DNA of 64,000 bases, from the NCBI GenBank assembly GCA_902760955.1, contig CACWIG010000006.1:1354-65353 (forward strand), given 5' to 3'. Position numbers and translations under genes: made by a program. The stretch comes from an uncultured Ruminococcus sp. GTDB lineage: Bacteria; Bacillota; Clostridia; Monoglobales; Monoglobaceae. This document shows positions 2,751 through 55,069 of this stretch, one piece after another (the first letter of the stretch is position 1; every line of letters starts with the position of its first letter). Below the pieces are notes generated by a model, which saw only the letters and a list, made by a program, of their open reading frames with translations, was not told the origin of the DNA and did not search any database.

Positions 2751-2789
2751 CGTTTGTTTTCGGAACAAAAGATGACTCCGTCCCCTACA
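2751..2789 (-). repeat. GTAG-hairpin repeat (family B), decayed copy
   Basis: Reverse strand reads CTTGTAGGGGACGGAGTCATCTTTTGTTCCGAAAACAAACG. Head and tail are intact but the 3' stem arm is mutated toward AT. Confidence 0.5.
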
Positions 2790-2790
2790 A

Positions 2791-2889
2791 GTTATAATTC
2801 AAAATAATTTTTTCTTTGCGGTTGGGCTTGGCAACCATATGGGCTTTGGGCAATTATTCATTAAAATTATTTTGGAATTTACAATTTGT
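2791..2889 (+). repeat. Family A structured intergenic element, copy 1
   Basis: AATTCAAAATAATTTTTT..GGTTG-GGCTTGG-CAACC-ATATGGGCTTTGGGCAAT..AAAATTATTTTGGAATTTACAATTTGT. Aligns along its full length with the copies at 7621, 26276 and 38398. Confidence 0.75.
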
Positions 2890-2924
2890 CATTAAACAGA
2901 TAATTTATTGCATACTCCAAGGCT

Positions 2925-2958
2925 GTTTTCGGGACGTCGGGGACGCCGTCCCCTACAA
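2925..2958 (-). repeat. GTAG-hairpin repeat (family B), canonical GGGACG type
   Basis: Reverse strand reads TTGTAGGGGACGGCGTCCCCGACGTCCCGAAAAC, identical to the copies at 52916 and 55036. Confidence 0.8.
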
Positions 2959-2972
2959 TGTGATATATCTTA

Positions 2973-3020
2973 TGTAGGTGTTTTTTCGAGACAAATGAGA
3001 ATGTCGTCCCATACAAATGT
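2973..3020 (-). repeat. GTAG-hairpin repeat (family B), decayed copy
   Basis: Reverse strand reads ACATTTGTATGGGACGACATTCTCATTTGTCTCGAAAAAACACCTACA. Head TTGTATGGGACG, tail CGAAAAAAC and CCTAC are kept but the stem is degraded. Confidence 0.5.
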
Positions 3021-3061
3021 AAAATAATTTATCTGTTTGAAGAAATACGTAACACGTCACG

Positions 3062-3095
3062 TGTAGGGTTCGGCGTCCTCGACGAACCGAAAAAT
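3062..3095 (+). repeat. GTAG-hairpin repeat (family B), GGTTCG/CGAACC stem variant
   Basis: TGTAGGGTTCGGCGTCCTCGACGAACCGAAAAAT. Same head, loop (GCGTCCTCGA) and tail as the canonical copies, with a different complementary stem. Confidence 0.75.
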
Positions 3096-3180
3096 GTCTA
3101 AAAATATACATCAAATCATCCGTTTGGCAAATATGTAACACACTCCCGACCACGTGGTATATCACACATATGTAGATATT

Positions 3181-3219
3181 GTTTTTCAGAACATCATAGA
3201 TGTCGTCCCATACAAATGT
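3181..3219 (-). repeat. GTAG-hairpin repeat (family B), AT-decayed copy
   Basis: Reverse strand reads TTGTATGGGACGACATCTATGATGTTCTGAAAAAC. It aligns base-for-base with the canonical unit, and all 9 substitutions are GC-to-AT. Confidence 0.6.
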
Positions 3220-3261
3220 ATTCAGCATTTAATCTACAAATCCAGATTTCATTGGACAATT

Positions 3262-4388
3262 TCAGGCTTTGCATTTCTTTTCTGTTTTTAAAATCATAAA
3301 TAGCAATAATACAAAAAAGAGAGCAAGATGCAATGGCATAAACCTTATACTAATATTATTGGCAATCAAGCCGAAAATCGGCGGCATAAATGTAGAGCCT
3401 ACATATGCACTTGCCATTTGAATTCCTATAATCCCTTGCGAATTTTCCGCACCAAAATTATATGGTGTGGAATGAATGATACACGGATATATCGGTGCAC
3501 ATCCAAGACCTATTATAACAAAGCCGATAACAGACGCAATTTTCAACGGCAATATAATGCATAAAACTCCAATCAAAGCTACACTTGTGCCGAGGTAAAT
3601 CATTTTATTATCGCCAAGTTTATCTGTGATAAATCCCGAAATAAATCTCCCTGCCGTAAGTCCTATAAAGAACAATGCACCAAAACCGGCTGCAGCCTCC
3701 TTGGTCAATCCTCTTGTACTTTCTAAGTAACTGCTTGCCCAAAGCATCGTTGTAGCCTCCGCCGCACAGTACGCAAAAAAACCTATCAACAAATATGGTA
3801 CTCCTTTTATTTTCAAAGCACCTCTAATTCCAAGAACTGCTGAATTTCTTTTTTCAAATATGGTGAATTTATTTATCTTCCATAATGGAATAGTAGCTAA
3901 CAACACAGCCAAAATGACAAACTGCAAACACGAAACCATACGATAACCATCTGTCCAGGAGTTGTGCATCAACGCATAACTCATTATATAAGGACTGATA
4001 ATTGTTCCCACTCCCCAAAAACAGTGCAACCAACTCATATGCTTTGATTTATAATGAAGAGCAACATAATTATTTAATGCCGCATCAATTGAACCTGCAC
4101 CCAATCCATATGGTATCCCCCATAAACACATATGATAAAATTCAGTCGATTTTGAAAATCCCCACAAAGCAACTGCCGTTAAGGCAACACTCACAAGGGT
4201 AATGGTTCTTGTACCCAACTTCTTGGTAAGTCTTTCAGCCTCTTTCTGGCTCATAAAATAAATCCCATATAAGACAGAGGAACATCAAATGCAACACGAA
4301 TTGCAGGCCAGGCCGAACCCAACAAAGAATCAGGCAATCCAAGACTTATAAAAGCCAGATATATAACAAGTAACAGTAATAAATACAT
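3262..4388 (-). pseudogene. MFS transporter, frameshifted (or assembly indel)
   Basis: The N-terminal 45 codons from ATG 4388 (MYLLLLLVIYLAFISLGLPDSLLGSAWPAIRVAFDVPLSYMGFIL) end at TGA 4253-4251. The remaining 330 codons (4254-3262, ..KHMSWLHCFWGVG..) are in another frame (offset 134 nt). Both parts read as one MFS protein. Confidence 0.6.
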
Positions 4389-4460
4389 CTTAACATATTC
4401 CTTTCCTTTCGATTACCTTTCAAAATCACGGTTCGGGTTTATAATATCAGCCTATTTTAC

Positions 4461-4505
4461 ACAAAACTAAAAACGTCATCAAAATTATGACGTTCTTAGT
4501 TTTGT
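4461..4505. terminator. Long AT-rich palindrome, possible terminator after the capD-like gene
   Basis: ACAAAACTAAAAACGTCAT-caaaatt-ATGACGTTCTTAGTTTTGT, a 19-bp stem with one mismatch. There is no clean U-tract on the minus strand. Confidence 0.4.
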
Positions 4506-4525
4506 CTATAATTCTATCATCATCT

Positions 4526-6517
4526 TTATGACAAAACAGGCTCCGGTTGATTGTTTTTTTCATTAACCTCGATTGACTTTGCGTTCACTTCATCTGACCT
4601 CTTAAACGTCGGAACCACCTCTCTCAAGGCATCTCTGACTAAATCATCATCTTCTGTTTCGCAAGCCTTTTGCAGAATTTCCATCTTTTTGTCGATTTCT
4701 TCCTTGCTCAAAGGCAAATCGTGTTCAATAAAAATCAACTTATTATCAGTTTTATCGAGTTCCGCTGTTTTAACAAGGAGTTCTTCATAGAGCTTTTCGC
4801 CAGGTCTAAGCCCTGTTTCAACAATTTCAATTCCGCTGACGCCTGACAGGCGAATCATACTCTCAGCCAAATCAAGAATTTTAACAGGCTGACCCATATC
4901 AAGAACAAACAATTCTCCGTTTTTTGCCATAGCACCGCTTTCCAGAACTAATTGACTTGCCTCAGGAATAGTCATAAAATAGCGAATTATTCTTTTATCA
5001 GTTATCGTGATGGGACCACCGTTTGCAATCTGTTTCTTAAACAATGGGATAACAGAACCGGCTGAACCCAACACATTTCCGAAACGAGTTGAACTATACT
5101 TCACTTTGCCGTGTATACTTGCACTCTGAACAAGCATTTCACACATACGCTTTGTCGCACCCATAACATTTGTCGGATTAACCGCTTTATCCGTAGATAC
5201 CATCATAAAACGCTCTGCATCGTATTTCTCACATAAATCAATTACGTTTTTTGTTCCAAACACGTTGTTGCAAACTGCCTCTACACAGTTGTTTTCCATA
5301 AGCGGAACGTGCTTATGAGCCGCAGCATTAATAACAATCTGCGGATGATATTTTTTAAATACACATTCAAGAGCCCTTTTGTTTGTAATAGAACAAATCT
5401 CTATATGTAAATTCAAGCGATTGCCGTATAATATTTTCAATTCCTGTTGAACATCATATGCGCCGTTTTCGTATATATCCAAAATAATAATCTGTTTTGG
5501 TTGCATCTTTGCCAACTGTCGACAAAGCTCTGAACCAATAGAGCCGCCGCCACCTGTTATCAATATAACTTTATCCTGATAGTATTTGCTGGTACGTTCA
5601 TTTGCGACAACCAATTGCTTTCTGAACAGCAATTCTTCAACATCAAACTCCCTGAGATGTCGTTTTCCTTCTGTCGTATACATTGTTGGGTAATCATATA
5701 CCTTAACCTTGAACCCTGCCTCCTTGTAATAATCATAGAGAGACTTTTTCTTTTCCGCATTCATTGACGGAATAGCAAAAACAATTTCCTGTACCTCAAA
5801 TGCCTCAAGCATTTTTAGGGTCACTTTATCTTCCGAGAAAACAGGAATACCGTGTATTTCGCGCCCCGCTTTTTCCTTTTTAATATCAATAAAACATCTC
5901 GGAACATATGCAGATTCTTTATTGCTTAAAAGTTCCTCCGCAAGACTGACACCCACACGTCCGGCACCGATAATTGCAATTTTGATTTTATGTGCATCCT
6001 TCCCCTTATCTGTCTCCAATCCCGCTAAAAGCCAAAGGGCAAAAGACGCAATCTTCCCTATTATATTATCTTGACCTCCGCACTTATACGCATAACGATA
6101 AAACATACGCATTGTCAATGCTCCCAACAAATTCAATGTGAACAACGACAAAGACCTGACAAACATATCTTTTTCAATGGGGAAAAGTAAATCAACGCAC
6201 AAATATATAAGAAAGGCAACAAAATCGGTGAATATCAATCTGATGTAACATTGTATTCCGCCATATCTCCATACCTGTCCGTATATATTTCCAACAATAC
6301 GGGCAGTAAAAATACAGGCAGCCGATATAACTATCTGTTGGATAATCCCATCTATAGTTAAATTCTTTGCTCCCTCATACAAAATAAACAAAACAATGGC
6401 TATGGCAACATAAATTATAGCATCGTACAAAACAAGCATCCATCTTATGTTTCTTTTGTTCCATATTGTTTTATGTTTTTTGTTTTTTGAATCAATTTTA
6501 TTGCCAGCAAAACACAT
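4526..6517 (-). CDS. Membrane-anchored NDP-sugar 4,6-dehydratase/epimerase (CapD/PglF/WbpM family polysaccharide biosynthesis protein)
   Basis: 663 aa. Four to five N-terminal TM helices, two Rossmann motifs (IIGAGRVG, ITGGGGSIG) and the CapD-type core ..STDKAVNPTNVMGATKR... Confidence 0.8.
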   Translation of the reverse strand: MCFAGNKIDSKNKKHKTIWNKRNIRWMLVLYDAIIYVAIAIVLFILYEGAKNLTIDGIIQQIVISAACIFTARIVGNIYGQVWRYGGIQCYIRLIFTDFVAFLIYLCVDLLFPIEKDMFVRSLSLFTLNLLGALTMRMFYRYAYKCGGQDNIIGKIASFALWLLAGLETDKGKDAHKIKIAIIGAGRVGVSLAEELLSNKESAYVPRCFIDIKKEKAGREIHGIPVFSEDKVTLKMLEAFEVQEIVFAIPSMNAEKKKSLYDYYKEAGFKVKVYDYPTMYTTEGKRHLREFDVEELLFRKQLVVANERTSKYYQDKVILITGGGGSIGSELCRQLAKMQPKQIIILDIYENGAYDVQQELKILYGNRLNLHIEICSITNKRALECVFKKYHPQIVINAAAHKHVPLMENNCVEAVCNNVFGTKNVIDLCEKYDAERFMMVSTDKAVNPTNVMGATKRMCEMLVQSASIHGKVKYSSTRFGNVLGSAGSVIPLFKKQIANGGPITITDKRIIRYFMTIPEASQLVLESGAMAKNGELFVLDMGQPVKILDLAESMIRLSGVSGIEIVETGLRPGEKLYEELLVKTAELDKTDNKLIFIEHDLPLSKEEIDKKMEILQKACETEDDDLVRDALREVVPTFKRSDEVNAKSIEVNEKNNQPEPVLS

Positions 6518-6848
6518 TTTTATACCCTTCCTATAATAGATAGTTTGATAGGTTCACACATAGGTCATTATACCACACACTAATAAAATAGTCAATATTT
6601 TTACTGAAATTTAGTCAAAATTCTATGTAATTTTTGTTGTATTTTCATCTATGCTGCTTATAATTAAAATAAATACAAAAGATAATGTTAAAAAAGTATG
6701 ACAAAAATGATAACTTTGCGGAAAGTTATCCACAATTTACAATTGTCTAATGTTATTTTAATTTGTAATATTGATTTTATATTTAGTGTATGCTATAATT
6801 ATATAAAAATAACTATGTAAGCTGTAATTCACGCAAGGGGTATTTAGT

Positions 6849-7592
6849 ATGAGCTTATTCTTGACATTGGCTTTTTTGTTTTTTATAGGTTCTGTATCGG
6901 GTTGGGTACTTGAACTGTTTTTCAGAAGATTTATTTCTTCAGGCAATCCCGACAGAAAATGGATTAATCCCGGTTTTTGCACAGGTCCGTACCTGCCTTT
7001 ATACGGAGTAGGACTTTGTGTTCTGTATCTTATTGCCTCAGCAGAACAGAAATTATCTTTTTCGTATGTATACTTACAAAAAATTGCATTATTTTTGATT
7101 ATGGCAATTTGTCTTACTGTGGTTGAATATATAGCAGGCATTATAAGCATAAAAATCGCAAAAGTTCGTTTATGGGATTACAGCGACGAATGGGGAAATA
7201 TACAAGGTATTATTTGTCCAAAGTTTTCTTTTTTCTGGAGTCTGCTCGGTGCACTATATGGCTTCCTTGTTCACCCATACATAAACGATGCACTCGATTG
7301 GTTTTCTAAAAACCTGGCGTTTTCTTTTGTTATCGGAATGTTTTTCGGTATATTTGTAATTGATGTTGTGCACTCGTTCCAGCTTGTTGCAAAACTAAAA
7401 AGATATGCCGAAGAAAACGACGTTATCGTACGCTATGAAGCTATTAAAAACGATATCAGAAGCAGATATGAAAAGACCAAAGAGAAATATCATTTTTTCA
7501 GACCTTTCCGTTCGGATATTCCTCTGTATGAGCATTTATCAAAGTTACATAATTCATTTGAAAAAAGAAAAAGGAAAAACAAAAGGAAATAA
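6849..7592 (+). CDS. Integral membrane protein (resembles the putative ABC-transporter type IV / CmpB-like family)
   Basis: 247 aa with several TM segments. N-terminus FFIGSVSGWVLELFFRRF..NPGFCTGPYLPLYGVG is reminiscent of that family. The assignment is from memory only. Confidence 0.5.
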   Translation: MSLFLTLAFLFFIGSVSGWVLELFFRRFISSGNPDRKWINPGFCTGPYLPLYGVGLCVLYLIASAEQKLSFSYVYLQKIALFLIMAICLTVVEYIAGIISIKIAKVRLWDYSDEWGNIQGIICPKFSFFWSLLGALYGFLVHPYINDALDWFSKNLAFSFVIGMFFGIFVIDVVHSFQLVAKLKRYAEENDVIVRYEAIKNDIRSRYEKTKEKYHFFRPFRSDIPLYEHLSKLHNSFEKRKRKNKRK

Positions 7593-7620
7593 TTATTACA
7601 CAGATTTGGTAATTATAAAA

Positions 7621-7730
7621 TGTAGAAAATCTCCGCAAAATCCGAAATAATTTTTTACATTGCAGTTTGGGCTTGGCATCTGTATGGGCAAAGGGCAATA
7701 TTCAATAAAATTATTTCGGATTTACAACTT
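7621..7730 (+). repeat. Family A structured intergenic element, copy 2 (with degenerate B-like head fused at the 5' end)
   Basis: TGTAGAAAATCTCCGCAAAATCCGAAATAATTTTTTACATTGCAGTTTGGGCTTGGCATCTGTATGGGCAAAGGGCAATATTCAATAAAATTATTTCGGATTTACAACTTG. The arms TCCGAAATAATTTT and AAAATTATTTCGGA are perfectly complementary. Confidence 0.75.
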
Positions 7731-7800
7731 GCACGTTATCTTTATTTCACGCAGTTCTCACGTTTCACAAACGACTAAATCAATATAAAGGGGAAAGACT

Positions 7801-8589
7801 ATGTTTACATTGGATAACATTTTACAAATCCTAAAACCATTAACAAAAGCTGCACTTGTTCTTCTTATCGGTCACTTTATCATTGTTTATATTATCAAAA
7901 TAATAAACCGCGGTTTTGAACGAAGCAAAGTTGATAATTCACTTGCAATTTTTTTATCAAAAGGAATTAATATTATTCTTCATATATTGATAATCCTCTC
8001 TGCATTGAATAGTCTCGGAATATCCACAGGCGGAATTATAGCCGCTTTCTCTGCCGCTGTTGTTGCTGTCGGCGTTGCTTTGAAGGATTCCCTGGGCAAT
8101 GTGGCAGGAGGTATATTACTGTTACTTTCACCTCGTTTTCACGCAGGCGATTATATTAAAACAGACACAGATGAGGGTACAGTTATAGATATCGGTATGC
8201 TTCATACCACAATACGAACATTTGATAACAAACAGATAAGCATTCCCAATGGAACTTTGATTAACAGCCACATAACAAATTATTCTGCAGAAGAAACAAG
8301 ACGAGTCGACCTAACCTTCTCCATACCTTACGAAACAGATGCTGAAACTGCGAAATCTATTATCAAAAATACGATTTTAAGCCGACCAAAAATTTTAACT
8401 CAGCCGTCAGAACCCTTTGTACGCGTTATCAGTTACGGAGAAAGCTCCGTTAACATCATTACAAGAACGTGGTGTAACACAGAAGATTATTGGGATGTTT
8501 ACTTTGACTTAAATGAGCAGATACGATATGCACTAAAAAAAGAGGGTATAGATATTCCATACAACCAACTTGATGTTCATATAAAATAA
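7801..8589 (+). CDS. Small-conductance mechanosensitive channel (MscS family)
   Basis: 262 aa. Three TM helices, then the MscS beta-domain (GDYIKTDTDEGTVIDIGMLHTTIRTFDNKQISIPNGTLINSHITNYS). Confidence 0.85.
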   Translation: MFTLDNILQILKPLTKAALVLLIGHFIIVYIIKIINRGFERSKVDNSLAIFLSKGINIILHILIILSALNSLGISTGGIIAAFSAAVVAVGVALKDSLGNVAGGILLLLSPRFHAGDYIKTDTDEGTVIDIGMLHTTIRTFDNKQISIPNGTLINSHITNYSAEETRRVDLTFSIPYETDAETAKSIIKNTILSRPKILTQPSEPFVRVISYGESSVNIITRTWCNTEDYWDVYFDLNEQIRYALKKEGIDIPYNQLDVHIK

Positions 8590-8596
8590 AATTTGC

Positions 8597-8625
8597 TTGA
8601 AAACATACAAAACATATGTTATTAT
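8597..8625 (+). promoter_or_regulatory. Candidate sigma-A promoter of the Rrf2 gene
   Basis: TTGAAA (8597-8602), 17 nt, TATTAT (8620-8625). Confidence 0.5.
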
Positions 8626-8667
8626 AGTATATTATAAATAAAAAATCAAAAGAGAGAGGCATATTTT

Positions 8668-9105
8668 ATGAAGATATCGACAAAAGGAAGATACGCTTTG
8701 CGTATGCTGATTGACCTTGCACAGCACAAAGACGAAGGTTTTATAGCCTTAAAGGATATTGCGGAAAGACAAGGTATATCCAAAAAATATTTAGAACAGA
8801 TAGTTCCCATATTAAATAAATCAGATATCCTGCAAACAAACCGCGGATATCAGGGCGGATACAGGCTTGCTCAGGAGCCGAGTAAGTATACAATAGGTAA
8901 AATACTACGTCTTACCGAAGGCAGTCTTGCTCCTGTTTCGTGCCTGGATAATACCACAAATCAGTGCGAACGCCGTGACGAATGTGTAACACTTTATATT
9001 TGGCAAGGACTTAACAAGGTTATCAACGATTATCTTGACAACATCACGCTTCAAGATGCATTAGACCACCAACAAGAGAGATATTCAAATGATTATATGA
9101 TTTAA
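8668..9105 (+). CDS. Rrf2 family transcriptional regulator (IscR/CymR-like)
   Basis: 145 aa. MKISTKGRYALRMLIDLA...wHTH, with Cys residues (C92, C100, C106) as in cluster-binding Rrf2 proteins. Confidence 0.85.
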   Translation: MKISTKGRYALRMLIDLAQHKDEGFIALKDIAERQGISKKYLEQIVPILNKSDILQTNRGYQGGYRLAQEPSKYTIGKILRLTEGSLAPVSCLDNTTNQCERRDECVTLYIWQGLNKVINDYLDNITLQDALDHQQERYSNDYMI

Positions 9106-9121
9106 ACCTTGCAATAAATTC

Positions 9122-9151
9122 TTGACAAACATACAGCTCATATGGTAAAAT
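9122..9151 (+). promoter_or_regulatory. Candidate extended -10 promoter of the preQ1-riboswitch leader
   Basis: TTGACA (9122-9127), 18 nt including TGG, TAAAAT (9146-9151). Confidence 0.55.
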
Positions 9152-9213
9152 GACATCAACAACTTAGGGTGATAGTATAAATCCGAACCGTGATTTGTAC
9201 TTTCACCCTAATC

Positions 9214-9254
9214 AGACAGTTCGTGACCATCCTGTCTATAAACAAAACTACGGG
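9214..9254 (+). promoter_or_regulatory. preQ1-I riboswitch aptamer
   Basis: AGACAG-UUCGUGACCAUC-CUGUCU-AUAAACAAAACUACGG. Compare the B. subtilis queC aptamer AGAGG-UUCUAGCUACAC-CCUCU-AUAAAAAACUAAGG. Loop CGUG can pair with tail UACG (H-type pseudoknot). The downstream gene is a YhhQ-type preQ0/preQ1 transporter. Confidence 0.75.
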
Positions 9255-9258
9255 TGAT

Positions 9259-9284
9259 GGGCGTTGTACGCCCTCTTTTCTTTT
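9259..9284 (+). terminator. Short intrinsic terminator (candidate riboswitch expression platform)
   Basis: GGGCG-TTGTA-CGCCC followed by TCTTTTCTTTT. The stem is only 5 bp. Confidence 0.45.
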
Positions 9285-9325
9285 CAGGATGGATTGCGTC
9301 ATACTATATTTAAAAGGTGATACAA

Positions 9326-10078: not shown

Positions 10079-10080
10079 AT

Positions 10081-10728: not shown

Positions 10729-10796
10729 CCCAAAACTTGACAAACCAACCCTTTTGTAGTATACTTGTAAAAGTTTTTTAACATAGGGGTGATTAT

Positions 10797-10991: not shown

Positions 10992-10992
10992 T

Positions 10993-11027: not shown

Positions 11028-11068
11028 TTTATACATAATGCAAATCAAATTCATCTTCTCTTCTGCTT

Positions 11069-26275: not shown

Positions 26276-26379
26276 TGTGTAAATGGAGCCTTAAATTCAA
26301 AATAATTTTTTCATTGCATTTGGGCTTGGCAAATGTATGGGCGTAGGGCAATTGTTCAATAAAATTATTTTGAATTTAA
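26276..26379 (+). repeat. Family A structured intergenic element, copy 3
   Basis: ..AAATTCAAAATAATTTTTTCATTGCATTTG-GGCTTGG-CAAATGTATGGGCGTAGGGCAATTGTTCAATAAAATTATTTTGAATTTAA. The 17-nt arms are perfectly complementary. Confidence 0.75.
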
Positions 26380-32038: not shown

Positions 32039-32066
32039 CCCATTGGTTTACCTGCCTATCCCTCAT

Positions 32067-32097
32067 AAACGGGCGATTCGTGAATCGCCCCTACAAA
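32067..32097 (-). repeat. GTAG-hairpin repeat (family B), GGGCGATTC/GAATCGCCC stem variant
   Basis: Reverse strand reads TTTGTAGGGGCGATTCACGAATCGCCCGTTTAT. It has the GTAGG head, a 9-bp perfect stem and a divergent tail. Confidence 0.65.
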
Positions 32098-32113
32098 CAC
32101 ACAAGAAAGTCAT

Positions 32114-32145
32114 AAATTCACAATAATTTTATTGAATGATTGCCC
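32114..32145 (-). repeat. Isolated right arm of family A (inverted)
   Basis: AAATTCACAATAATTTTATTGAATGATTGCCC is the reverse complement of GGGCAATCATTCAATAAAATTATTGTGAATTT, the A right half. It abuts the B copy at 32155. Confidence 0.6.
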
Positions 32146-32154
32146 TGTGCCATA

Positions 32155-32186
32155 TGTAGGGGACGGCGTCCCCGACGTCCCGTAAA
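32155..32186 (+). repeat. GTAG-hairpin repeat (family B), canonical
   Basis: TGTAGGGGACGGCGTCCCCGACGTCCCGTAAA. Confidence 0.8.
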
Positions 32187-32223
32187 ATCTACTACAAAAA
32201 TAAAAATATTTTAAATTACTAAC

Positions 32224-38359: not shown

Positions 38360-38397
38360 TATAACTGATATATAAATAAAGGGTAAAAATATAAGGC

Positions 38398-38510
38398 TGT
38401 GAAAAAATCTCCGCATAATCCGAAATAATTTTTTCATTGCAGTTGGGCTTGGCAACTGTATGGGCTTCGGGCAATTGTTTAATAAAATTATTTTGGATTT
38501 ATAATTTGTG
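38398..38510 (+). repeat. Family A structured intergenic element, copy 4 (between galT and galK)
   Basis: TGTGAAAAAATCTCCGCATAATCCGAAATAATTTTTTCATTGCAGTTG-GGCTTGG-CAACTGTATGGGCTTCGGGCAATTGTTTAATAAAATTATTTTGGATTTATAATTTGTG. Confidence 0.75.
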
Positions 38511-38590
38511 CAATACTGCTATGGAGAACAATCGGAGAAAATAAACGATAGAAAATGGCTAATAAATATAATATATAAGGAGTACAAATA

Positions 38591-39760: not shown

Positions 39761-39798
39761 TAAATTATATGCCATATTTGGCATACCATTCAAAAAAG

Positions 39799-39832
39799 GA
39801 GATGAATGATATCAACCATTAATCTCATTTTT
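39799..39832 (+). terminator. Candidate intrinsic terminator after galK
   Basis: GAGATGAATG-atatcaac-CATTAATCTC (one mismatch) followed by ATTTTT. Confidence 0.5.
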
Positions 39833-39849
39833 AGCGTAATTCATAATAA

Positions 39850-39889
39850 TGTAGGGTTCAGTGTCCTCGACGAGCCGAAATCACCTACA
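39850..39889 (+). repeat. GTAG-hairpin repeat (family B), GGTTCA/CGAGCC imperfect-stem variant
   Basis: TGTAGGGTTCAGTGTCCTCGACGAGCCGAAATCACCTACA. Loop GTGTCCTCGA, tail with CCTAC. Confidence 0.7.
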
Positions 39890-39912
39890 AATACATAATT
39901 AATTATACCATC

Positions 39913-39943
39913 ACGGGACGTCGAGGACGCCGTCCCCTACGAA
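39913..39943 (-). repeat. GTAG-hairpin repeat (family B), canonical stem with the CCTC loop variant
   Basis: Reverse strand reads TTCGTAGGGGACGGCGTCCTCGACGTCCCGTG. It forms an inverted pair with the 39850 copy. Confidence 0.8.
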
Positions 39944-39997
39944 TATGCAAAATTTGTACCATACTCAAGGGAGCGAAACATAATTAAAAATTACTTA

Positions 39998-48346: not shown

Positions 48347-48373
48347 ATAAATTCATCCTTCCATTACATATAA

Positions 48374-48408
48374 CTAAAACAGGGAGTCGGTATACACCAA
48401 CTCCCCGC
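48374..48408 (-). terminator. Intrinsic terminator inside the purL leader (attenuator)
   Basis: Minus strand reads GGGAGUUGG-UGUAUA-CCGACUCCC-UGUUUUAG. It ends about 27 nt upstream of the purL ATG. Confidence 0.6.
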
Positions 48409-48596
48409 AAAAATTTACAATAATTCTCTGCACTTTGCCTCAAAAGACGCAATATTAGCGTCGCACAGATAAACGTATTTAAAAGATATCATATTATTGT
48501 TTTTCATCACATTGTAATTTACAAATCTCATCTTAAAAAATCCGTCCTCTCTGTATTTATTCATTACCTTTGCACCATATAAAAGTAACCTTAATT

Positions 48597-48625
48597 AGTA
48601 TAACACAAGGATTGCATAAATGCAA
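48597..48625 (-). promoter_or_regulatory. Candidate sigma-A promoter of the pur operon
   Basis: Minus strand reads TTGCAT (48625-48620), 17 nt, TATACT (48602-48597). Confidence 0.5.
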
Positions 48626-48711
48626 ATATAATATTAAAGATTTTGTAAATTTGTGCATTTTTTATGTATTAATACACATAAGTTACAATTCGTTGTATAA
48701 ATATATATGTC

Positions 48712-48742
48712 AAAAAAAACAGCGGAGCAATAACTCCGCCGT
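48712..48742 (-). terminator. Intrinsic terminator of abrB
   Basis: Minus strand reads ACGGCGGAG-UUAUUG-CUCCGCUGU followed by UUUUUUUU. Confidence 0.7.
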
Positions 48743-48751
48743 TTTTAAGTA

Positions 48752-48994
48752 CTATTCGTTTTTGAGCTTTTCTATGCACTCGCGACATATACGCTTGTCC
48801 ATATAGTTTACAACCTCGTTAGCACTTCCGCAGAAAATGCAGGCAGGCTCATACTTTCTCAGTATGATGCTATCACCATCTACATAAATTTCCAAAGGGT
48901 CTTTGCGATCAATTTTAAATATCTCTCTTAACTCCTTTGGTAAAACAATCCTTCCCAGTTCGTCAACCTTCCTTACTATTCCGGTACTCTTCAT
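48752..48994 (-). CDS. abrB: Transition-state regulator AbrB (SpoVT/AbrB swapped-hairpin domain)
   Basis: MKSTGIVRKVDELGRIVLPKELR.., with a C-terminal Cys pair (CIFCGS...CRECIEKL) as in clostridial AbrB. Confidence 0.85.
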   Translation of the reverse strand: MKSTGIVRKVDELGRIVLPKELREIFKIDRKDPLEIYVDGDSIILRKYEPACIFCGSANEVVNYMDKRICRECIEKLKNE

Positions 48995-49060
48995 ACAATT
49001 TACCTCCTTTCTATGAATTTTACTTTATTTGTTAAGTATTAACAAATATTTACATTTCAG

Positions 49061-49089
49061 ATTATAATCCTTAATATTTCATTTGTCAA
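49061..49089 (-). promoter_or_regulatory. Consensus sigma-A promoter of abrB
   Basis: Minus strand reads TTGACA (49089-49084), 17 nt, TATAAT (49066-49061). Confidence 0.6.
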
Positions 49090-49125
49090 CCCTTTTTTTG
49101 ATATTTTTTCTATTTTTTGTAAATT

Positions 49126-51081
49126 TTAATTATTTTTTCCATTTTTAGCTATAACGTTGACCGAAAATACAGAATTATTGTATAAAATATTCCAATTATA
49201 AGATTCCCATTCGGATTGTGTCACAAAATCGGACTTTACTTTTCTGCCTAAACCAAGTATATCACAACCAATGGTTGATGTTTTATACAAAAAAGTTTCG
49301 ATTTGGCTTTTAAGCATTCGTGCAACCTTATCTAAATCGGCACCTTCCGACACAGTAACCTCTATTTCTAACGTAATGTATGGATTAACATTGTCAGTAG
49401 ATACCTCAACATCAGGCTTACATACACTTGATAACACACACTCACCCGTACCGTAGTTAAACCCTGCCTCCTCTGTGTTTCCAATCAACACATTATAGAT
49501 AAGTGCTTCATCAGCATCTGCGACGCCACACATCTTTCCCGACAGAAAAAGAGCCATACCCGACAGACCATTTTCGTTCACAAGAGGCACAACGGCATCA
49601 TATGCCTTGTCAACACTTCTGCTGACAAAATCCCGCAGAGTCGTTACAGTTGCATATGGCACATCTCTGTTTTTAAAGAATAACTCATAGTACCTGATAG
49701 TGTTTTCTTCAAGGGTTGGGTTTACGCTTTTTAAAAATTCCACAGCAGAGTCTGCCACACAAAGATTAGCCGATTGTCTGACCTCTCTATCCTTCATTAA
49801 TACCACGCAATGACTCAGAGCATCCTCTTTAGCCACCTGTTCCGATAGTGCCACAACCTTTACATTGCTGAAATCTGTTTTTTTGCTCATTACACTTTTA
49901 AGCTTATTTTTCGCCGTAAAGAAGTCCTCCGCCTCCACACAGATATTATCTACTGTTTTGTTGCCATCAGACTGTTTTTCATCGGCTTTTTCTTCTGTTC
50001 CAATACTTCCGCCCGACTCTAAGGGATTGGATAATTGAAAGGTATACTTAAATTCAGAGTTATCTCCCTTATCTATTCCCATGGCAATTACATATCCCTT
50101 TTCCTCCACCTCGCTGCTGTCATAGCAGCCACACAACATCAGGCACATTATTAACGACATAACCGCCGCTCCTGCTCTCTTAATGTTAAAGCTGATTTTT
50201 CTGACCTCGTTGACTATAATACTAAGCGAGAGAGAGGAATAGAGAATTGCAGATGTGATTAATGCCAACAAATACGCAAAATCAATGCGTATGGGAAACT
50301 TACCAACGCTTGCACCTTTAGTCAGTGCATAGGTAATATGCTCTACACCCTCTGCATATTCGTATGGGAAGTTAAGCGAGAATATAAGAATAATCAAGAC
50401 ATTTGCAACAACGGCTAAAACAGCAGAGAACATAGCTGTTTTCTTATACGAATATTTACCGCTGTTTCTCGGCAAGAAAAATATTGCAATAATATCGGAA
50501 TACATCAATAAAGACGACAATCCCTTAAAAAGCACATTGCTTGCACCCTTGCCAAGCACAGGTGCAAGATTGTATATATCAGCATTTTTTAATCCGAATA
50601 CAAATATGGCGGCAACTGTAAGACCAATACCTAAAGACGATAAGGAATGCATACGTCTGACCGCCTGATTACCGCACAGCATCGTTACAAGTGCCGCCAA
50701 AACTATAAAAACACCTGTATACCAAAGAGGTGAGGTAGGGAAAACAGTTTTTCTCAACGCACAGCATACATAAAACACAACCGCACAGAATGAAACAATA
50801 AAGTATATGACACCAATTAACGATACGGCATTGCTTGCCTTTGTTCCGAATTTTCTTTTAACAGCCTCGACAATTCCAATATCGGCATACTTATCGTAAA
50901 GCATCATAATAAGCCAAAAAATTGCTAAGAATACCGCTCCCGAAAAAAAAGCCGTAAGCCAAGCGGCACTTCCGCCAAAATGAAGATATATTTTGGGATA
51001 AAACAAAAACAGTTTAAATACAAGCGAATTAAATATTATACAACCAAGCTCCCATTTTCCAATGTTATTGTTATCATTCAT
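49126..51081 (-). CDS. Spore germination receptor, fused GerAB-like permease and GerAC-like lipoprotein
   Basis: 651 aa. The N-terminal ~300 aa form a multi-TM GerAB/APC-like permease. An internal signal peptide plus lipobox follows (AAVMSLIMCLMLCGC), then a Ger(x)C-type domain (YDSSEVEEKGYVIAMGIDKG...). It is one uninterrupted ORF. Confidence 0.75.
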   Translation of the reverse strand: MNDNNNIGKWELGCIIFNSLVFKLFLFYPKIYLHFGGSAAWLTAFFSGAVFLAIFWLIMMLYDKYADIGIVEAVKRKFGTKASNAVSLIGVIYFIVSFCAVVFYVCCALRKTVFPTSPLWYTGVFIVLAALVTMLCGNQAVRRMHSLSSLGIGLTVAAIFVFGLKNADIYNLAPVLGKGASNVLFKGLSSLLMYSDIIAIFFLPRNSGKYSYKKTAMFSAVLAVVANVLIILIFSLNFPYEYAEGVEHITYALTKGASVGKFPIRIDFAYLLALITSAILYSSLSLSIIVNEVRKISFNIKRAGAAVMSLIMCLMLCGCYDSSEVEEKGYVIAMGIDKGDNSEFKYTFQLSNPLESGGSIGTEEKADEKQSDGNKTVDNICVEAEDFFTAKNKLKSVMSKKTDFSNVKVVALSEQVAKEDALSHCVVLMKDREVRQSANLCVADSAVEFLKSVNPTLEENTIRYYELFFKNRDVPYATVTTLRDFVSRSVDKAYDAVVPLVNENGLSGMALFLSGKMCGVADADEALIYNVLIGNTEEAGFNYGTGECVLSSVCKPDVEVSTDNVNPYITLEIEVTVSEGADLDKVARMLKSQIETFLYKTSTIGCDILGLGRKVKSDFVTQSEWESYNWNILYNNSVFSVNVIAKNGKNN

Positions 51082-51100
51082 ATAAGATCTCCATTCTTAT

Positions 51101-52612
51101 TTACTTTTCCATCCATTTTCTACTGATATGAGGTTGACGAACAGGCTGTTGAGTTTTTAAATTCTTCGGTCTGCGTTCCTTTTTCCATATGGGCTTGACT
51201 AAAACAGCATCTACGGTTGAAGTTCCGTTTTTTGGTGTAATTGGTGACAAAAATGGTACATTATATGTCATAGACGAAGCCAGGAACGACACGCCGATAA
51301 AATACGCACAGACTATGCCAAGCATACCTGCAACCCCACCGAATACAATAAACACAAACCTTGTCAACGCAAGGGATCTGGAAAGCTCCACAGAAGGCGA
51401 TGCAAAAGTCCCAAGCCCTGCAATAGATACTATAATTATCAGTATGGGACTTACTATATTTGCATCAACCGCTGCCTGTCCCAAGATAAGACCGCCTATT
51501 ATACCTATCGTTGACCCAACGGGACTTGGAACTCTGACAGACGCCTCTTTTATCAGTTCAAATGCAAGCTCCATCAATACAAGTTCAACAACTAACGGAA
51601 ACGGCACAACCTCACGTGTTGCCTCAATTGCCAATAGCAAATCTGCAGGTAATATTTCTTGATGATAGAGCATAACAGCCACAAATACACCCGGCAACAA
51701 AACAGAAATTCCCAAGCCAAGCAATCTGACAATCTTCATAAAATTGGCTTCAGGCACTCTGACGTAATTATCCTCTGATGCCTCTATCAAATCAACTGCT
51801 GTTGTGGGTAATACAAGGACGAAGGGACTTCCCTGAACAATCACCACTACCTTTCCCTCAGCTAACATTGACGCAGCTCTGTCGGGACGTTCTGTCTTTA
51901 ATGTTCTTGTTATGGGAAAGAAGGTCTTAGTTTCAATCAACATTTCTATATCGCTTGACGAAAATATATATTCTGTTTCAATCAAGTTTAATCTGCGTCT
52001 GACCTCTGCCACAAGCTTTTTATTCGTTATCCCGTCAATATACAGCAATGCACAGGGCGTATTGCTCTTTGTTCCCACCTTGATATTCTCTGCAATCAGG
52101 TTAGGGTCTTTAAGAATTTTTCTAATCAGGGCAAGGTTATTCATAATAACCTCATTAAATCCCTCTTGAGGTCCCGAAAGGCTCGCCTCGCGTACAGGCT
52201 GTTCAACACCTCTGTTTCCCCAACCCTTTACATCTGCCGCAAAGCAACAATCACAGCCGTCAACAAATATTAAACAATGACCAAATGTCAGCTTCTCGAT
52301 TATCTTGTCAATTTTTGTTTCTTTGGTGAGCGGTGCAAGGGTTATCAATCGCTTGAATATAAAATCGGATAAGTTATCATTCTTTGGAATTTCTCCTTTG
52401 TTTTGAATAAGTCCTCGCATAATATCCCTGTTGATGTAGGTTTGGTTCACCAATCCATCATAAAAAGCCGCAAAACCTGATACCTTGCCGTTATCAAATC
52501 CTATCTCAAAATCTCTTATAATAAAGTCAAAATTGTCGGGCAATCCAAATATGTCCTCCATATTTTTGCGGTTTATTTCTAAATTAATATCCACAAGCAT
52601 TGTTTCATTCAT
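51101..52612 (-). CDS. gerAA: Spore germination receptor subunit A (GerAA/GerKA family)
   Basis: GerA-family core with a C-terminal TM bundle. Start set at ATG 52612 (RBS GAGGTGA) rather than the extended ORF start at 52669. Confidence 0.85.
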   Translation of the reverse strand: MNETMLVDINLEINRKNMEDIFGLPDNFDFIIRDFEIGFDNGKVSGFAAFYDGLVNQTYINRDIMRGLIQNKGEIPKNDNLSDFIFKRLITLAPLTKETKIDKIIEKLTFGHCLIFVDGCDCCFAADVKGWGNRGVEQPVREASLSGPQEGFNEVIMNNLALIRKILKDPNLIAENIKVGTKSNTPCALLYIDGITNKKLVAEVRRRLNLIETEYIFSSSDIEMLIETKTFFPITRTLKTERPDRAASMLAEGKVVVIVQGSPFVLVLPTTAVDLIEASEDNYVRVPEANFMKIVRLLGLGISVLLPGVFVAVMLYHQEILPADLLLAIEATREVVPFPLVVELVLMELAFELIKEASVRVPSPVGSTIGIIGGLILGQAAVDANIVSPILIIIVSIAGLGTFASPSVELSRSLALTRFVFIVFGGVAGMLGIVCAYFIGVSFLASSMTYNVPFLSPITPKNGTSTVDAVLVKPIWKKERRPKNLKTQQPVRQPHISRKWMEK

Positions 52613-52707
52613 CGAAAATTCACCTCTGTTCGAGATGTATTTTCTCCGTAAATTAAAAATATATTCCATTGATTTACTTTACTTACCGCAAACAAACCTA
52701 CGATAAC

Positions 52708-52737
52708 AAATTCAAAATAATTTTAATGAATAATTGC
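52708..52737 (-). repeat. Isolated right arm of family A (inverted), abutting the tandem array
   Basis: AAATTCAAAATAATTTTAATGAATAATTGC is the reverse complement of the copy-1 right arm GCAATTATTCATTAAAATTATTTTG(G)AATTT. Confidence 0.6.
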
Positions 52738-52741
52738 ATAA

Positions 52742-52962
52742 TTGTATGGCAGGGGCTCGCTCCTGCCGAATATCAACCGAAAAATAAAATTGTAGGGCAG
52801 GGGCTCGCTCCTGCCAAAAATCAACCGAAAAATAAAATTGTAGGGCAGGGACTTGCTCCTGCCGAATATCAACCGAAAAATAAATTTGTAGGACAAAGGC
52901 TTGCTCCTGCCGAATTTGTAGGGGACGGCGTCCCCGACGTCCCGAAAACAAACCTACGATAA
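52742..52962 (+). repeat. Tandem array of family B hairpin units (48-nt period: 3 full units, 1 truncated, 1 canonical GGGACG unit)
   Basis: Unit starts at 52742, 52790, 52838, 52886 and 52916. Unit sequence: TTGTAGGGCAGGGGCTCGCTCCTGCCGAATATCAACCGAAAAATAAAA, with hairpin GGCAGG-ggctcgct-CCTGCC. Confidence 0.85.
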
Positions 52963-52973
52963 AAATTTCTAAT

Positions 52974-53729
52974 TTATATTTTATAAATTCTGTACTGCTT
53001 CCTATATTCACTGGGGGTTATGCCCTCTTTAATTTTAAATTCGCGGCTAAAATGATACACACTTGAAAAGCCGCACATTTCCGCAATATTACTGATTTTA
53101 TTCACGCCCTCACTCAACAGCAATTTCGCCTTTGAAATGCGAAGATTTAAAACAAACTGCTTAGGCGATATTTTGTACTGCTTTATAAACTGTTTTCTGA
53201 AGTATACCTCACTTATCTTACATTGCTTGGCAAGTACCTCATTAGTCAGAGAAGAATCAGAATAATTGTCTTTTATATACGTCATTGCAGGTGCAAGAAG
53301 TATATTTATAGTTTTATTTGAATATACATTATGAATTATATTGTAAAACAAACTCATAATTTTGGCTCTGTTGCCATCGAATAGATGTAGGTTATATAAA
53401 GTGTTAAAATCTCTTATACATTCGTCAGGATTGTCCAACGGAAACAAAAGAATAGTGTCGCACAATTTCTCTGCACAGGTAAAATCAATTACGTAGAACT
53501 GTCCTGTCTTGTCTCCGTATATGCTGTAGCTCTGCCCCTGAGGAAGAATTACAGCGTTTCCCTTATCAGATACAAATTTTTTACCATTATGCATATATGT
53601 TATCTGTCCGCTCAAACAAAATGACAAGCCGTAAGTTTCACGTTCAACGATTTCTTCGTGTCTGCCTTTTTCGGAAAACACCGTGAACACCAATGGTATA
53701 CTCGTTACCGTTATATCAGTAAGTTCCAC
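52974..53729 (-). CDS. AraC family transcriptional regulator
   Basis: 251 aa. N-terminal cupin-like domain and C-terminal HTH pair (..LAKQCKISEVYFRKQF...GFSSVYHFSREFKIKEGITPSEYR). Confidence 0.85.
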   Translation of the reverse strand: MELTDITVTSIPLVFTVFSEKGRHEEIVERETYGLSFCLSGQITYMHNGKKFVSDKGNAVILPQGQSYSIYGDKTGQFYVIDFTCAEKLCDTILLFPLDNPDECIRDFNTLYNLHLFDGNRAKIMSLFYNIIHNVYSNKTINILLAPAMTYIKDNYSDSSLTNEVLAKQCKISEVYFRKQFIKQYKISPKQFVLNLRISKAKLLLSEGVNKISNIAEMCGFSSVYHFSREFKIKEGITPSEYRKQYRIYKI

Positions 53730-53942
53730 AATTCTCGCCTCCTGTATAGTATAATACCATATTATATAAAGTAAAGCAACATATTATTTGGCAATTGTAT
53801 CAAAAGTGTTAAATTTATATCGTTTTTGGCATTGAATATTAATAGATAGTCGGTTATAATTTTATAAGATTGACAGACAATCGCACAACAGCGTGTCTAT
53901 AATAATTAAATTTTCATTGCAACCACGAAAGGAGAAAAAAAC

Positions 53943-54926
53943 ATGAAAGCAATGCTTGTAAACGCAGATCAGTCATTGTCTTGGAGTGACGTTCCTGATC
54001 CCGTTATCAAATCAGAAGAGGTACTTGTTGAAATTCACGCAGCTGCACTTAACCGCGCTGACTTAATGCAGAGAGAGGGTGACTATCCTCCTCCCCCCGG
54101 ATGCCCTGATTGGATGGGACTTGAAATTGCAGGTGTTATCGTTGAAATGGGTGATGAAGCTAAGGCTAAATCAAATTGGAAAATAGGCGACAAGGTATGT
54201 GCACTTCTTGGCGGCGGCGGTTATGCCGAATACGTTTCAGTTAAATATGATATGCTTATGCCTGTACCGAAAAACTGTTCTATGGAAGAGGCTGCAGCTA
54301 TTCCCGAGGCATTTGCAACAGCATACTTAAACCTCTTTATCGAGGGTAAAATTCAGCCAGGTAACACATTACTTATGAACGCAGGGGCATCAGGACTTGC
54401 AAGTGTTATTATTCCTATGGCAAAGGCTTTTGGCGTAAGAGTTATTACAACTGTTTTAACTGATGAAATCGCAGAATCTATAAAGCATTTGAATGCTGAC
54501 AGAGTTGTTGTTACAACAAAAGAAGATATTTCTGAAGTATTAAAAGAGGAGCTCGAAAAGGGTACATCTGTTGACGTTGCAATCGACTGTCTCGGCGGCG
54601 AGATTATGGGTAAGTGTATACACTACTTAACTCACGGTGCAAGATGGATTATGATTGCGGCTCTCGCAGGTCAGAAAACAGAGATTGACCTCAAAAATAT
54701 CTATGTAAGAAATGTCAGAATTGTGGGCAGCACCCTCCGTTCAAGAACTCCTGAGGTTAAGGCAGAAATTTTGGCATCATTGGTTCGTGACGTATTCCCT
54801 AAAATCGAAACAGGCGAAGTTAAGCCTACTATTTATAAGATATTGCCTATAACTGAGGCTGAGGCAGCACACGACATTCTCTACAGAGGCGAAAATGTCG
54901 GAAAGGTTGTTCTTACAGTAAAATAA
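53943..54926 (+). CDS. NAD(P)H:quinone oxidoreductase (MDR/zeta-crystallin family)
   Basis: 327 aa. AAALNRADLMQREGDYPPPPG.. and the nucleotide fold NAGASGLAS. Confidence 0.85.
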   Translation: MKAMLVNADQSLSWSDVPDPVIKSEEVLVEIHAAALNRADLMQREGDYPPPPGCPDWMGLEIAGVIVEMGDEAKAKSNWKIGDKVCALLGGGGYAEYVSVKYDMLMPVPKNCSMEEAAAIPEAFATAYLNLFIEGKIQPGNTLLMNAGASGLASVIIPMAKAFGVRVITTVLTDEIAESIKHLNADRVVVTTKEDISEVLKEELEKGTSVDVAIDCLGGEIMGKCIHYLTHGARWIMIAALAGQKTEIDLKNIYVRNVRIVGSTLRSRTPEVKAEILASLVRDVFPKIETGEVKPTIYKILPITEAEAAHDILYRGENVGKVVLTVK

Positions 54927-54969
54927 TGCTGTGGATATGATAAAACGGTGTTGTTAAAAAAGGATGAAA

Positions 54970-55004
54970 CAGCGGTTTGTCGGAAATCGCCAAACCCTAC
55001 ATTT
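54970..55004 (-). repeat. GTAG-hairpin repeat (family B), GGTTTG/CAAACC stem variant
   Basis: Reverse strand reads AAAATGTAGGGTTTGGCGATTTCCGACAAACCGCT. Loop GCGATTTCCGA. Confidence 0.65.
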
Positions 55005-55035
55005 TGTGTGAAATCTAATCATCATACAAAATAAA

Positions 55036-55069
55036 TTGTAGGGGACGGCGTCCCCGACGTCCCGAAAAT
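55036..55069 (+). repeat. GTAG-hairpin repeat (family B), canonical
   Basis: TTGTAGGGGACGGCGTCCCCGACGTCCCGAAAAT. Confidence 0.8.

Follow-up and report, generated by a model that had tools for sequence, protein, structure and literature searches.

GTAG-headed intergenic hairpins in a Monoglobaceae genome resemble REP elements and recur in RAYT-like genes of rumen and gut Clostridia

The window analysed here is a stretch of 64,000 nucleotides (64 kb) from an uncultured Ruminococcus sp. of the Monoglobaceae (GenBank assembly GCA_902760955.1, contig CACWIG010000006.1), and it carries in five of its intergenic gaps (2683-3261, 32039-32223, 39761-39997, 52670-52973 and 54927-55101) a family of short, GC-rich hairpins headed by the tetranucleotide GTAG. 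All coordinates are those of this window, and L-numbers (L005, L030, L139 and the like) denote stretches from other genomes or metagenomes. An earlier interpretation made from the letters alone, hereafter the sequence-only reading, had likened the hairpins to repetitive extragenic palindromic (REP) elements and bacterial interspersed mosaic elements (BIMEs), and the sequence-level traits by which that likeness could be judged are all present, namely a GTAG foot that stays unpaired, an imperfect palindrome rich in GC, an extragenic location, inverted dimers, and subfamilies with different but complementary stems. We consider it probable, at roughly 80%, that these are GTAG-type REP elements, i.e. 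short non-autonomous DNA hairpins whose cognate enzyme is a REP-associated tyrosine transposase (RAYT, or TnpA-REP, of the HUH/Y1 class), a domesticated transposase that disperses such repeats in bacterial genomes, and that they resemble those of TnpA-Y1 subclass 2.4.

The canonical unit, TTGTAGGGGACGGCGTCCCCGACGTCCCGAAAA, occurs as three identical 33-mers at 2926-2958(-), 52916-52948(+) and 55036-55068(+), while its 26-nt core, GTAGGGGACGGCGTCCYCGACGTCCC, is found at 32156-32181(+) and, with a TCCT loop, at 39915-39940(-). In the first gap, the canonical unit at 2926-2958(-) has a TCCC loop and TT...GAAAA flanks (44.8 bits, E 1.5e-10 with the covariance model described below), and 35 nt at this position are 100% complementary to 52916-52950. 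It lies head to head with a variant at 3063-3088(+) that carries the compensatory lower stem GGTTCG/CGAACC (42.5 bits, E 6.9e-10; DNA fold -9.1 kcal/mol, z -3.5). The remaining traces in this gap are decayed, and comprise a unit at 2757-2790(-) that retains its GTAGGGGACGG head and its 5' arm but has lost the 3' arm (13.2 bits, E 0.13 at 2762-2788), two remnants within 2974-3014 that were read by eye and are unscored by the covariance model (a GTAGG head at 2974-2978(+), and GTCGTCCCATAC at 3003-3014, the head end of a minus-strand unit), and a remnant at 3187-3213(-), ...GATGTCGTCCCATAC, with 67% identity to the canonical unit (repeat search family D4). In the second gap, a unit of another stem type, GTAG-GGGCGATT-cacg-AATCGCCC, at 32071-32094(-) (DNA fold -8.7 kcal/mol, z -3.7) faces the canonical, TCCC-loop unit at 32156-32181(+) (44.8 bits) head to head across 61 nt, the two making a dimer.

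The third gap, between galK and purH, holds a doublet in which the GTAG heads face outward. Its first member, at 39851-39889(+) (core 39851-39876), is an imperfect GGTTCA/CGAGCC unit with a double foot, 5' GTAGG and 3' CCTAC (35.9 bits, E 5e-8), and its second is the canonical TCCT-loop unit at 39915-39940(-) (46 bits); their 27-nt arms are 78% complementary, and the whole of 39845-39946 can fold as one long DNA hairpin (-18.2 kcal/mol, z -4.3), in the manner of a REPIN, or REP doublet. In the fourth gap there is a plus-strand tandem array at 52740-52914, with 3.6 copies of a 48-nt unit (repeat family D3; GTAGG-GCAGG..CCTGC hairpins with AACCGAAAA tails) in which the stem is GGCAGG/CCTGCC, the first head reads GTATGG, two units score 13.3 bits each, and the fourth (52888-52911) is decayed. 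The array is followed by a canonical TCCC-loop unit (52916/52918-52957, plus strand; pattern and covariance-model match) that has a second foot by virtue of a tail, GAAAACAAACCTAC, ending in CCTAC; the tail of this unit is duplicated at 52681-52724 (repeat family D5). In the last gap, a variant at 54974-55000(-), whose lower stem is GGTTTG/CAAACC and whose loop has 5 nt (25.6 bits, E 4e-5; DNA fold -7.8 kcal/mol, z -3.9), stands head to head with the canonical TCCC-loop unit at 55036-55068(+), which was found by both pattern and covariance model. This dimer occupies the loop of an inverted repeat that is not itself a REP, ATGATAAAACGGTGTTGTTAAAAAAG / CTTTTTTAACAGCACCGTTTTTTTAT (26-nt arms at 54937-54962 and 55072-55097, 88% complementary, 109 nt between arms), whose A-run and T-run ends and location between convergent genes give it the look of a bidirectional terminator, and the arrangement suggests that the REP dimer (54974-55063) inserted into a pre-existing terminator. 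In total there are four inverted pairs, head-to-head or tail-to-tail and 33-105 nt apart, plus the one tandem array with its 48-nt period. The coordinates given in the sequence-only reading were all correct when the sequence was re-read; its count of at least 15 copies is better expressed as about 12 scoreable units plus the three or four decayed remnants noted above (2757-2790, 2974-3014, 3187-3213, 52888-52911).

Each unit consists of an unpaired GTAG followed by a 9-bp stem, GGGACGGCG/CGACGTCCC, in which position 7 is a conserved G·A mismatch, and a TCCY tetraloop. The minimum-free-energy DNA fold of the canonical unit (-9.6 kcal/mol, z -3.0) has a 6-bp stem, the G·A mismatch, a further 2-bp stem and the tetraloop, and so most of what had been described earlier as a loop, GCGTCCYCGA, is stem. 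The CGAAAA tail that had been ascribed to the family is real, but it is limited to part of it; the CCTAC that had been noticed after some units is borne out as a 3' CTAC/CCTAC second foot on three of them. GTAG itself is invariant across the 27 distinct unit types of our alignment (A2) and is unpaired in the minimum-free-energy DNA folds. The 26-nt cores are 62-77% GC, against about 38% GC for the window.

These units are far more numerous than chance would supply. The pattern TTGTAGG-N15-35-CGAAAA has 6 matches in the window where 0.12 are expected, and a neutral descriptor (GTAGG plus a GC-rich hairpin) has 10, whereas 50 Markov-1 controls averaged 0.42 and never exceeded 3, so that the enrichment proposed as a check by the sequence-only reading is found, within the window, to be well above chance. 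A covariance model (R1) was built from the 27 distinct unit types and scanned over the whole window with filters off, which gave 8 matches at E≤4e-5 and 4 at E~0.12; every one is intergenic and none falls in coding DNA. Intergenic DNA makes up 12% of the window. REP-bearing gaps account for 3 of the 7 convergent gaps, 2 of the 31 tandem gaps and none of the 6 divergent ones, and hence the units always lie 3' of at least one gene. The intergenic, gene-3' placement claimed at the outset is thereby upheld for all 12 model-scored units.

Covariation of the stems had also been claimed, and in order to avoid circularity we selected units without any pairing criterion, solely on GTAG-N6-GCGTCCYCGA, from the window and from 115 loci of other genomes, and then compared the next six bases with N6. 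Perfect complements were found for 13 of 20 non-canonical arm combinations, and 18 of 20 have no more than one mismatch. In alignment A2, 94.9% of cells are paired, and double-sided changes occur in 25 cells versus 7.6±2.3 in shuffles, with none of 500 shuffles reaching the observed value; when the partner column is slid by 1-3 positions, pairing falls to 24-56%. Variation in the stem is mostly at positions 4 and 5, and one pair is represented by four Watson-Crick types (CG, AU, UA and GC). The claim thus has statistical support.

The family extends well beyond this genome. An exact-match scan with GTAGGGGACGGCGTCCYCGACGTCCC, using one genome per species, returned at least 115 stretches in at least 86 assemblies, such that the same 26 nucleotides are present in at least 86 other species-level Clostridia genomes. 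Carriers among the matches listed are nearly all rumen or gut Clostridia, including cultured Ruminococcus flavefaciens strains, Oscillospiraceae, Acutalibacteraceae, Ructibacterium and Faecousia. Compared across 134 copies of the 26-mer, the flanking sequences are unrelated, and therefore it is the unit of about 26-33 nt itself that is conserved or copied. The 115 listed loci contain 374 GTAGG-headed hairpins of 186 types, and these form a superfamily with many stem variants; the GGGCGATT stem type of 32071-32094, for example, has 3 copies in other genomes and is also found inside the RAYT gene of L030. Arrays occur here also, with periods of 36 and 63 nt in L048 and L005. A scan of JGI metagenomes with the window-specific 33-mer gave 4 matches, one of which (L146) holds a RAYT with a different REP type; in a plasmid collection the near-matches to the 33-mer were mainly in a Vescimonas chromid. 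As a separate observation, a canonical REP apparently lies within ordinary protein-coding sequence, judged by coding-like flanks, at L146 5817-5849, L040 ~7391 and L061 ~4085; intragenic REPs have also been reported by Di Nocera et al. (PMC3733652).

The link to a RAYT, which the sequence-only reading had drawn by inference, can be seen directly in other genomes, as the identical 26-mer lies within, and sometimes beside, RAYT-like genes of related Clostridia. A search for the HUH...Y-x-x-x-NP motifs, followed by a family-specific hidden Markov model (HMM), identified RAYT-like open reading frames (ORFs) of 165-200 aa in 8 of the 115 listed loci and in L146. Every such ORF has NH[IVL]H and then Y[I]xxNP, and N83, H84, H86, Y149 and N153 are invariant in 50 homologues. 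The sole match in a sequence search of the PDB was E. coli TnpA-REP (4ER8), and an AlphaFold2 model (mean pLDDT, the per-residue confidence score, 82) has as its best fold match the same entry, a RAYT bound to a REP hairpin (E 1.3e-7, TM score 0.60), followed by IS200/IS605 TnpA. The NCBIfam model NF047646, 'REP-associated tyrosine transposase', matches at E 5e-19 (68.8-69.6 bits). The family comprises at least 7,966 protein clusters at 90% identity (E≤1e-10), and homologues in JGI and UniRef are already named 'REP element-mobilizing transposase RayT'.

Within the RAYT gene the 26-mer is present twice, in frame and in inverted orientation, with the sense copy before the HUH motif and the antisense copy after it. 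The sense copy encodes VGDGVLDVP, following the first strand, and the antisense copy encodes GTSRTPSPT; both peptides are present in 80 of the 120 top homologues, and in the structural model both are loops, the second with pLDDT <50. We examined four RAYT genes that had been chosen solely for the similarity of their proteins, which are about 56-64% identical to the queries used; the genomes range from 46 to 63% GC. In these genes the peptides are encoded by the REP's own nucleotides, the lone exception being a synonymous GTC to GTT change in the sense copy of L149, and so the synonymous positions are all but invariant. Variant peptides such as VGGGVLDAP match compensated stems (GGGGCG/CGCCCC), and the RAYT of L146 has a different REP type at the same two in-gene positions, with that same type immediately downstream. 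RAYT genes flanked by the same REP type, an arrangement termed a REPtron, were found in L080, L096, L103, L030 and L146.

In some of these genes the in-frame REPs are expanded in tandem: L096 1259-1960 reads GPSRTPAPTRETGTGPSGTPAPTREAGTGPSGTPAPT, L048 3578-4087 contains 36-nt repeats within the RAYT reading frame, and L103 636-1229 has a duplicated GVLDVPP. The gene-internal REPs thus appear to be dynamic while the reading frame stays unbroken. We also observe a RAYT in the replication-origin cluster of one Clostridia metagenome-assembled genome (L152 10001-10531; also L153-L155), in the order dnaA-dnaN-S4-recF-remA-RAYT-gyrB-...-gyrA, where it is separated from its neighbours by just 1-3 nt; the RAYT of L149 is 3.4 kb from gyrB. 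For a transposase homologue this is a housekeeping-like and apparently vertically inherited location.

A more speculative idea, which we regard as rather unlikely at present, is that the RAYT gene is itself a REPIN-like doublet, with its own REP present twice at fixed positions, inverted and bracketing the HUH-coding segment, and with the REP frozen clade-wide as part of the reading frame. If this were true, the enzyme could act on its own gene, through autoregulation, excision or phase variation, and REP identity would be tied to the transposase, which would explain how one identical 26-mer comes to exist in at least 86 species when the REPs of Proteobacteria are species-specific. In any case, identity of a 26-mer across dozens of species is unusual, and it is plausibly linked to the fixed double presence in the RAYT frame.

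Given these observations, the following mechanism may be proposed. A single-copy RAYT gene elsewhere in the chromosome would supply the enzyme, which, acting on single-stranded DNA, would recognize both the GTAG foot, left unpaired, and the GC-rich stem, i.e. three basal G-C pairs, a variable middle and the conserved G·A mismatch, with the TCCY loop on top. Cleavage and rejoining beside the hairpin would then seed single units, inverted doublets (REPIN- or BIME-like) and local tandem arrays in intergenic DNA, mainly 3' of genes and in terminator loops, and the inserted hairpins may secondarily stabilise mRNA 3' ends. Both the presence of a RAYT in this genome and cleavage of single-stranded DNA are steps that we infer, and any present-day activity of the REPs, or role at the RNA level, is likewise conjectural.

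A number of observations weigh against this proposal. The RAYT-like proteins fall below the curated NCBIfam cut-off (68.8 versus 80 bits) and are at about the Pfam one (Y1_Tnp, 19-25 bits versus a cut-off of 23). Neither the motif search nor the family HMM finds a RAYT/Y1 gene or fragment in the 64-kb window, which agrees with the earlier statement that no transposase is present there, so that a cognate RAYT of this organism is hypothetical and would have to reside elsewhere in the chromosome. The one Y1 homologue in the record of Monoglobus pectinilyticus (518 kb) is truncated and distant and lies in a restriction-modification context, and this record was not among the plasmid-search records matching the canonical 33-mer. 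No differences in REP presence were seen among strains >99% identical, which thus give no sign of recent mobility. In favour of mobility, comparison with a more distant relative did yield one orthologous empty site: in L139 (GalK 92% identical, galT-galK-purH synteny kept) the galK-purH spacer is 57 nt and contains a plain terminator hairpin, as opposed to 237 nt with the REP doublet in the window. This could also reflect a deletion there rather than an insertion in the window.

Further searches for the enzyme were also made. A phmmer search of 3,454 ORFs with IS608 TnpA as query had no match, a RAYT protein query returned only distant matches from the plasmid collection, and a protein search with the query edited to the TCCC-loop peptides led to a different organism, of 48% GC, and not to this one. 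If the RAYT of this genome carries GTAGGGGACGGCGTCCCCGACGTCCC, its in-gene peptides are predicted to be VGDGVPDVP and/or GTSGTPSPT. A rumen metagenome contig matches the window at 99.99% identity, and the window's galactokinase shares 98% identity with one labelled Monoglobaceae. Six short contigs from other samples (L117, L119, L120, L125, L135 and L136) end at REPs, at window positions 32087-32096, 39943 and 55042-55074 (three of them at the last of these), as is expected of a multi-copy repeat. In L137 (93% identical), synteny with the window (39761-39997 versus L137 3171-3320) ends downstream of galK, just before the position of the REP doublet, and a gene other than purH is found there.

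The main open alternative is that the REPs are fossils, which were spread by an ancestral RAYT that has since been lost, and which persist as immobile relics or are kept for some host function. The empty RAYT search of the window, the lack of insertion or deletion polymorphism among the closest strains, the truncated Y1 gene of M. pectinilyticus and the decay of several units are all compatible with this explanation. On the other hand, the three identical 33-mers and the 35-nt perfect match between distant loci argue for recent copying or strong constraint, and the prevalence of the TCCC-loop subtype in the window (4 of 5 canonical units, as compared with 13 of 134 elsewhere) suggests a lineage-specific amplification. 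On balance we hold it to be a minority possibility, about as doubtful as the doublet idea above.

It is considerably less probable that the hairpins are structural or regulatory elements of the host (terminators, mRNA 3' stabilisers or protein-binding sites) that have become REP-like by convergence, with no transposase involved. Their placement 3' of genes would fit this, as would the doublet inside a terminator-like inverted repeat, and an RNA element would also show stem covariation. However, no unit in the five gaps is called as an intrinsic terminator, the tail being GAAAA and not a T tract, and the units occur in both orientations relative to neighbouring genes and in none of the divergent, promoter-containing gaps. 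Moreover, there is no Rfam match at the gathering threshold in the whole window, and below it only chance-level ones in the REP regions (E≥0.055), and many genomes have the identical 26-mer within a RAYT gene. Both an intrinsic terminator and a known RNA family were thus rejected as identifications of the unit.

Less probable again is that the units are pieces or passengers of some other mobile element, such as a decayed insertion sequence, a prophage, a RAYT pseudogene, or an AT-rich repeat of the window that we refer to as family B. Partial copies of family B do adjoin REP heads (32107-32154, 52703-52737), a full copy (2796-2880) lies between two REPs, and the repeat is an insertion/deletion polymorphism relative to L137. 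In opposition to this, the flanks of the 26-mer are unrelated in 134 copies, the RAYT HMM finds no gene fragment in the window that would represent a pseudogene, and family B was found in none of the 115 listed REP-bearing loci of other species. The phage collection has the 33-mer solely in a few short, unannotated faecal contigs, and therefore a prophage origin is rejected; neither the phage nor the plasmid collection supports an origin from such elements. Last, a CRISPR-like or other regularly spaced array may be dismissed, despite the 48-nt period at 52740-52914 and the 36- and 63-nt periods of L048 and L005, as most units are solitary or in irregularly spaced inverted pairs, the L048 array lies within a RAYT reading frame, and the 'spacers' of the window's array are themselves repeated (89-92% identity), which makes them tandem duplications.

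Two other repeats of the window may be recorded here. Family B, of about 85-180 nt, has full copies at 2796-2880, 7640-7724, 26294-26378 and 38417-38501 (all plus strand), the two partial copies just mentioned being in reverse orientation. Its ends are inverted repeats of 16 nt, AATTCAAAATAATTTT / AAAATTATTTTGAATT, and its inner hairpin has a covarying stem (CATTTG/CAAATG, GGTTG/CAACC, CAGTTG/CAACTG); folded as RNA, z scores are -1.1 to -4.7, and no Rfam family is matched. Three of the four full copies are upstream of plus-strand genes. The copy at 38381-38561 is the one absent from the 93%-identical L137, and three contigs (L125-L127) start within 38438-38482, so that family B too is an assembly break point. 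It may be a species-specific miniature inverted-repeat transposable element or a structured RNA. A 32-nt inverted repeat, AAATCACGGTTCGGGTTTATAATATCAGCCTA / TAGGGTGATAGTATAAATCCGAACCGTGATTT, is present at 4423-4454 and 9165-9196 (91% complementary) and has no relation to the REP family. Between its arms lie 4.7 kb with about five genes, and the arms could mark the two ends of a segment that is mobile or invertible, or else be a regulatory site that is shared.

Returning to the interpretation of the hairpins as RAYT-associated REPs, the closest known counterpart is TnpA-Y1 subclass 2.4, which is RAYT group 4 in the scheme of Bertels et al. 2017 and is characterised by three G-C pairs at the base of the stem, double-foot REPs, and in-frame REPs in the tnpA-REP gene (Quentin et al. 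2018, PMC6006769). The present elements share with it a long REP with a 5' GTAG foot, basal GGG/CCC pairs in the canonical and most other types, the double foot GTAG...CTAC (39851-39889, 52918-52957) and in-frame REPs, and the proteins share the HUH motif NH[IVL]H, a WQ motif and Y-x-x-x-NP. They differ in host range, subclass 2.4 being abundant in Cyanobacteria and Bacteroidetes and scattered elsewhere (PMC6006769) whereas these are elements of rumen and gut Clostridia (Monoglobaceae, Oscillospiraceae, Ruminococcus, Acutalibacteraceae), and in having in-gene REPs at two fixed positions that are nucleotide-conserved across homologues only about 55-60% identical. In place of YIxNNP, the Y motif is mostly YIDTNP here (YIDNNP in L021), and the likeness to the subclass is one of traits. 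The REP/BIME and RAYT system of E. coli (4ER8; subclass 2.2) is alike in its GTAG foot, in the imperfect palindrome rich in GC, in forming inverted dimers, in lying 3' of genes and in the fold of its HUH/Y1 enzyme, and the GTAG-contacting positions of 4ER8 align with conserved W/F-Q, D/E-H and R residues in the clostridial proteins. Stem and loop sequences are different, however, the proteins are about 25% identical, the E. coli RAYT has no in-gene REPs, and E. coli REPs are species- or genus-specific, in contrast to a 26-mer that is identical in at least 86 species.

The unpaired GTAG tag, stems of 6-13 bp and subfamilies arising by complementary substitution are also features of the GTAG-tagged REP superfamily of Di Nocera et al. 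2013 (PMC3733652), as are head-to-head and tail-to-tail dimers 20-100 bp apart, tandem clusters and a preference for convergent or unidirectional gaps; the G·A mismatch in the stem has its parallel in the GTAG-24 family of P. aeruginosa (PMC3733652). As in REPINs (Bertels & Rainey 2011), there are inverted doublets that can fold as one long hairpin (39845-39946), and the associated RAYT is apparently single-copy and among housekeeping genes; unlike in REPINs, the spacers of the doublets are not conserved between loci, and singlets and mixed-type dimers are common. In the survey of Di Nocera et al. (PMC3733652), GTAG repeats were confined to Proteobacteria, Cyanobacteria, Chloroflexi and the PVC superphylum, and none of the 24 families came from Firmicutes. 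Our searches of the full-text literature found no published description of REP/RAYT in Clostridia. The earlier statement that no characterised equivalent is known from Clostridia therefore stands as far as published surveys are concerned, although automated annotation already names the proteins RayT. It appears that the taxon is new for GTAG-type REPs, while the kind of element itself is known.

To our knowledge, nearly all characterisation of REP/RAYT systems has been in Proteobacteria, and the present findings show a large one in rumen and gut Clostridia. They leave unchanged the understanding of what REPs are, but there are practical consequences, in that the hairpins break metagenome assemblies and cause spurious gene calls. 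One 99-aa 'gene' of a public assembly, L116 8770-9069 (equivalent to ~52712-53011 of the window), was called over the REP cluster; it has no Pfam match, and the GC-rich repeats probably gave rise to it as a spurious ORF. REPs also put short peptides into reading frames, and could serve as strain-typing or lineage markers for gut Clostridia. From an evolutionary standpoint, the system provides a case in which REP identity is physically coupled to the sequence of the transposase.

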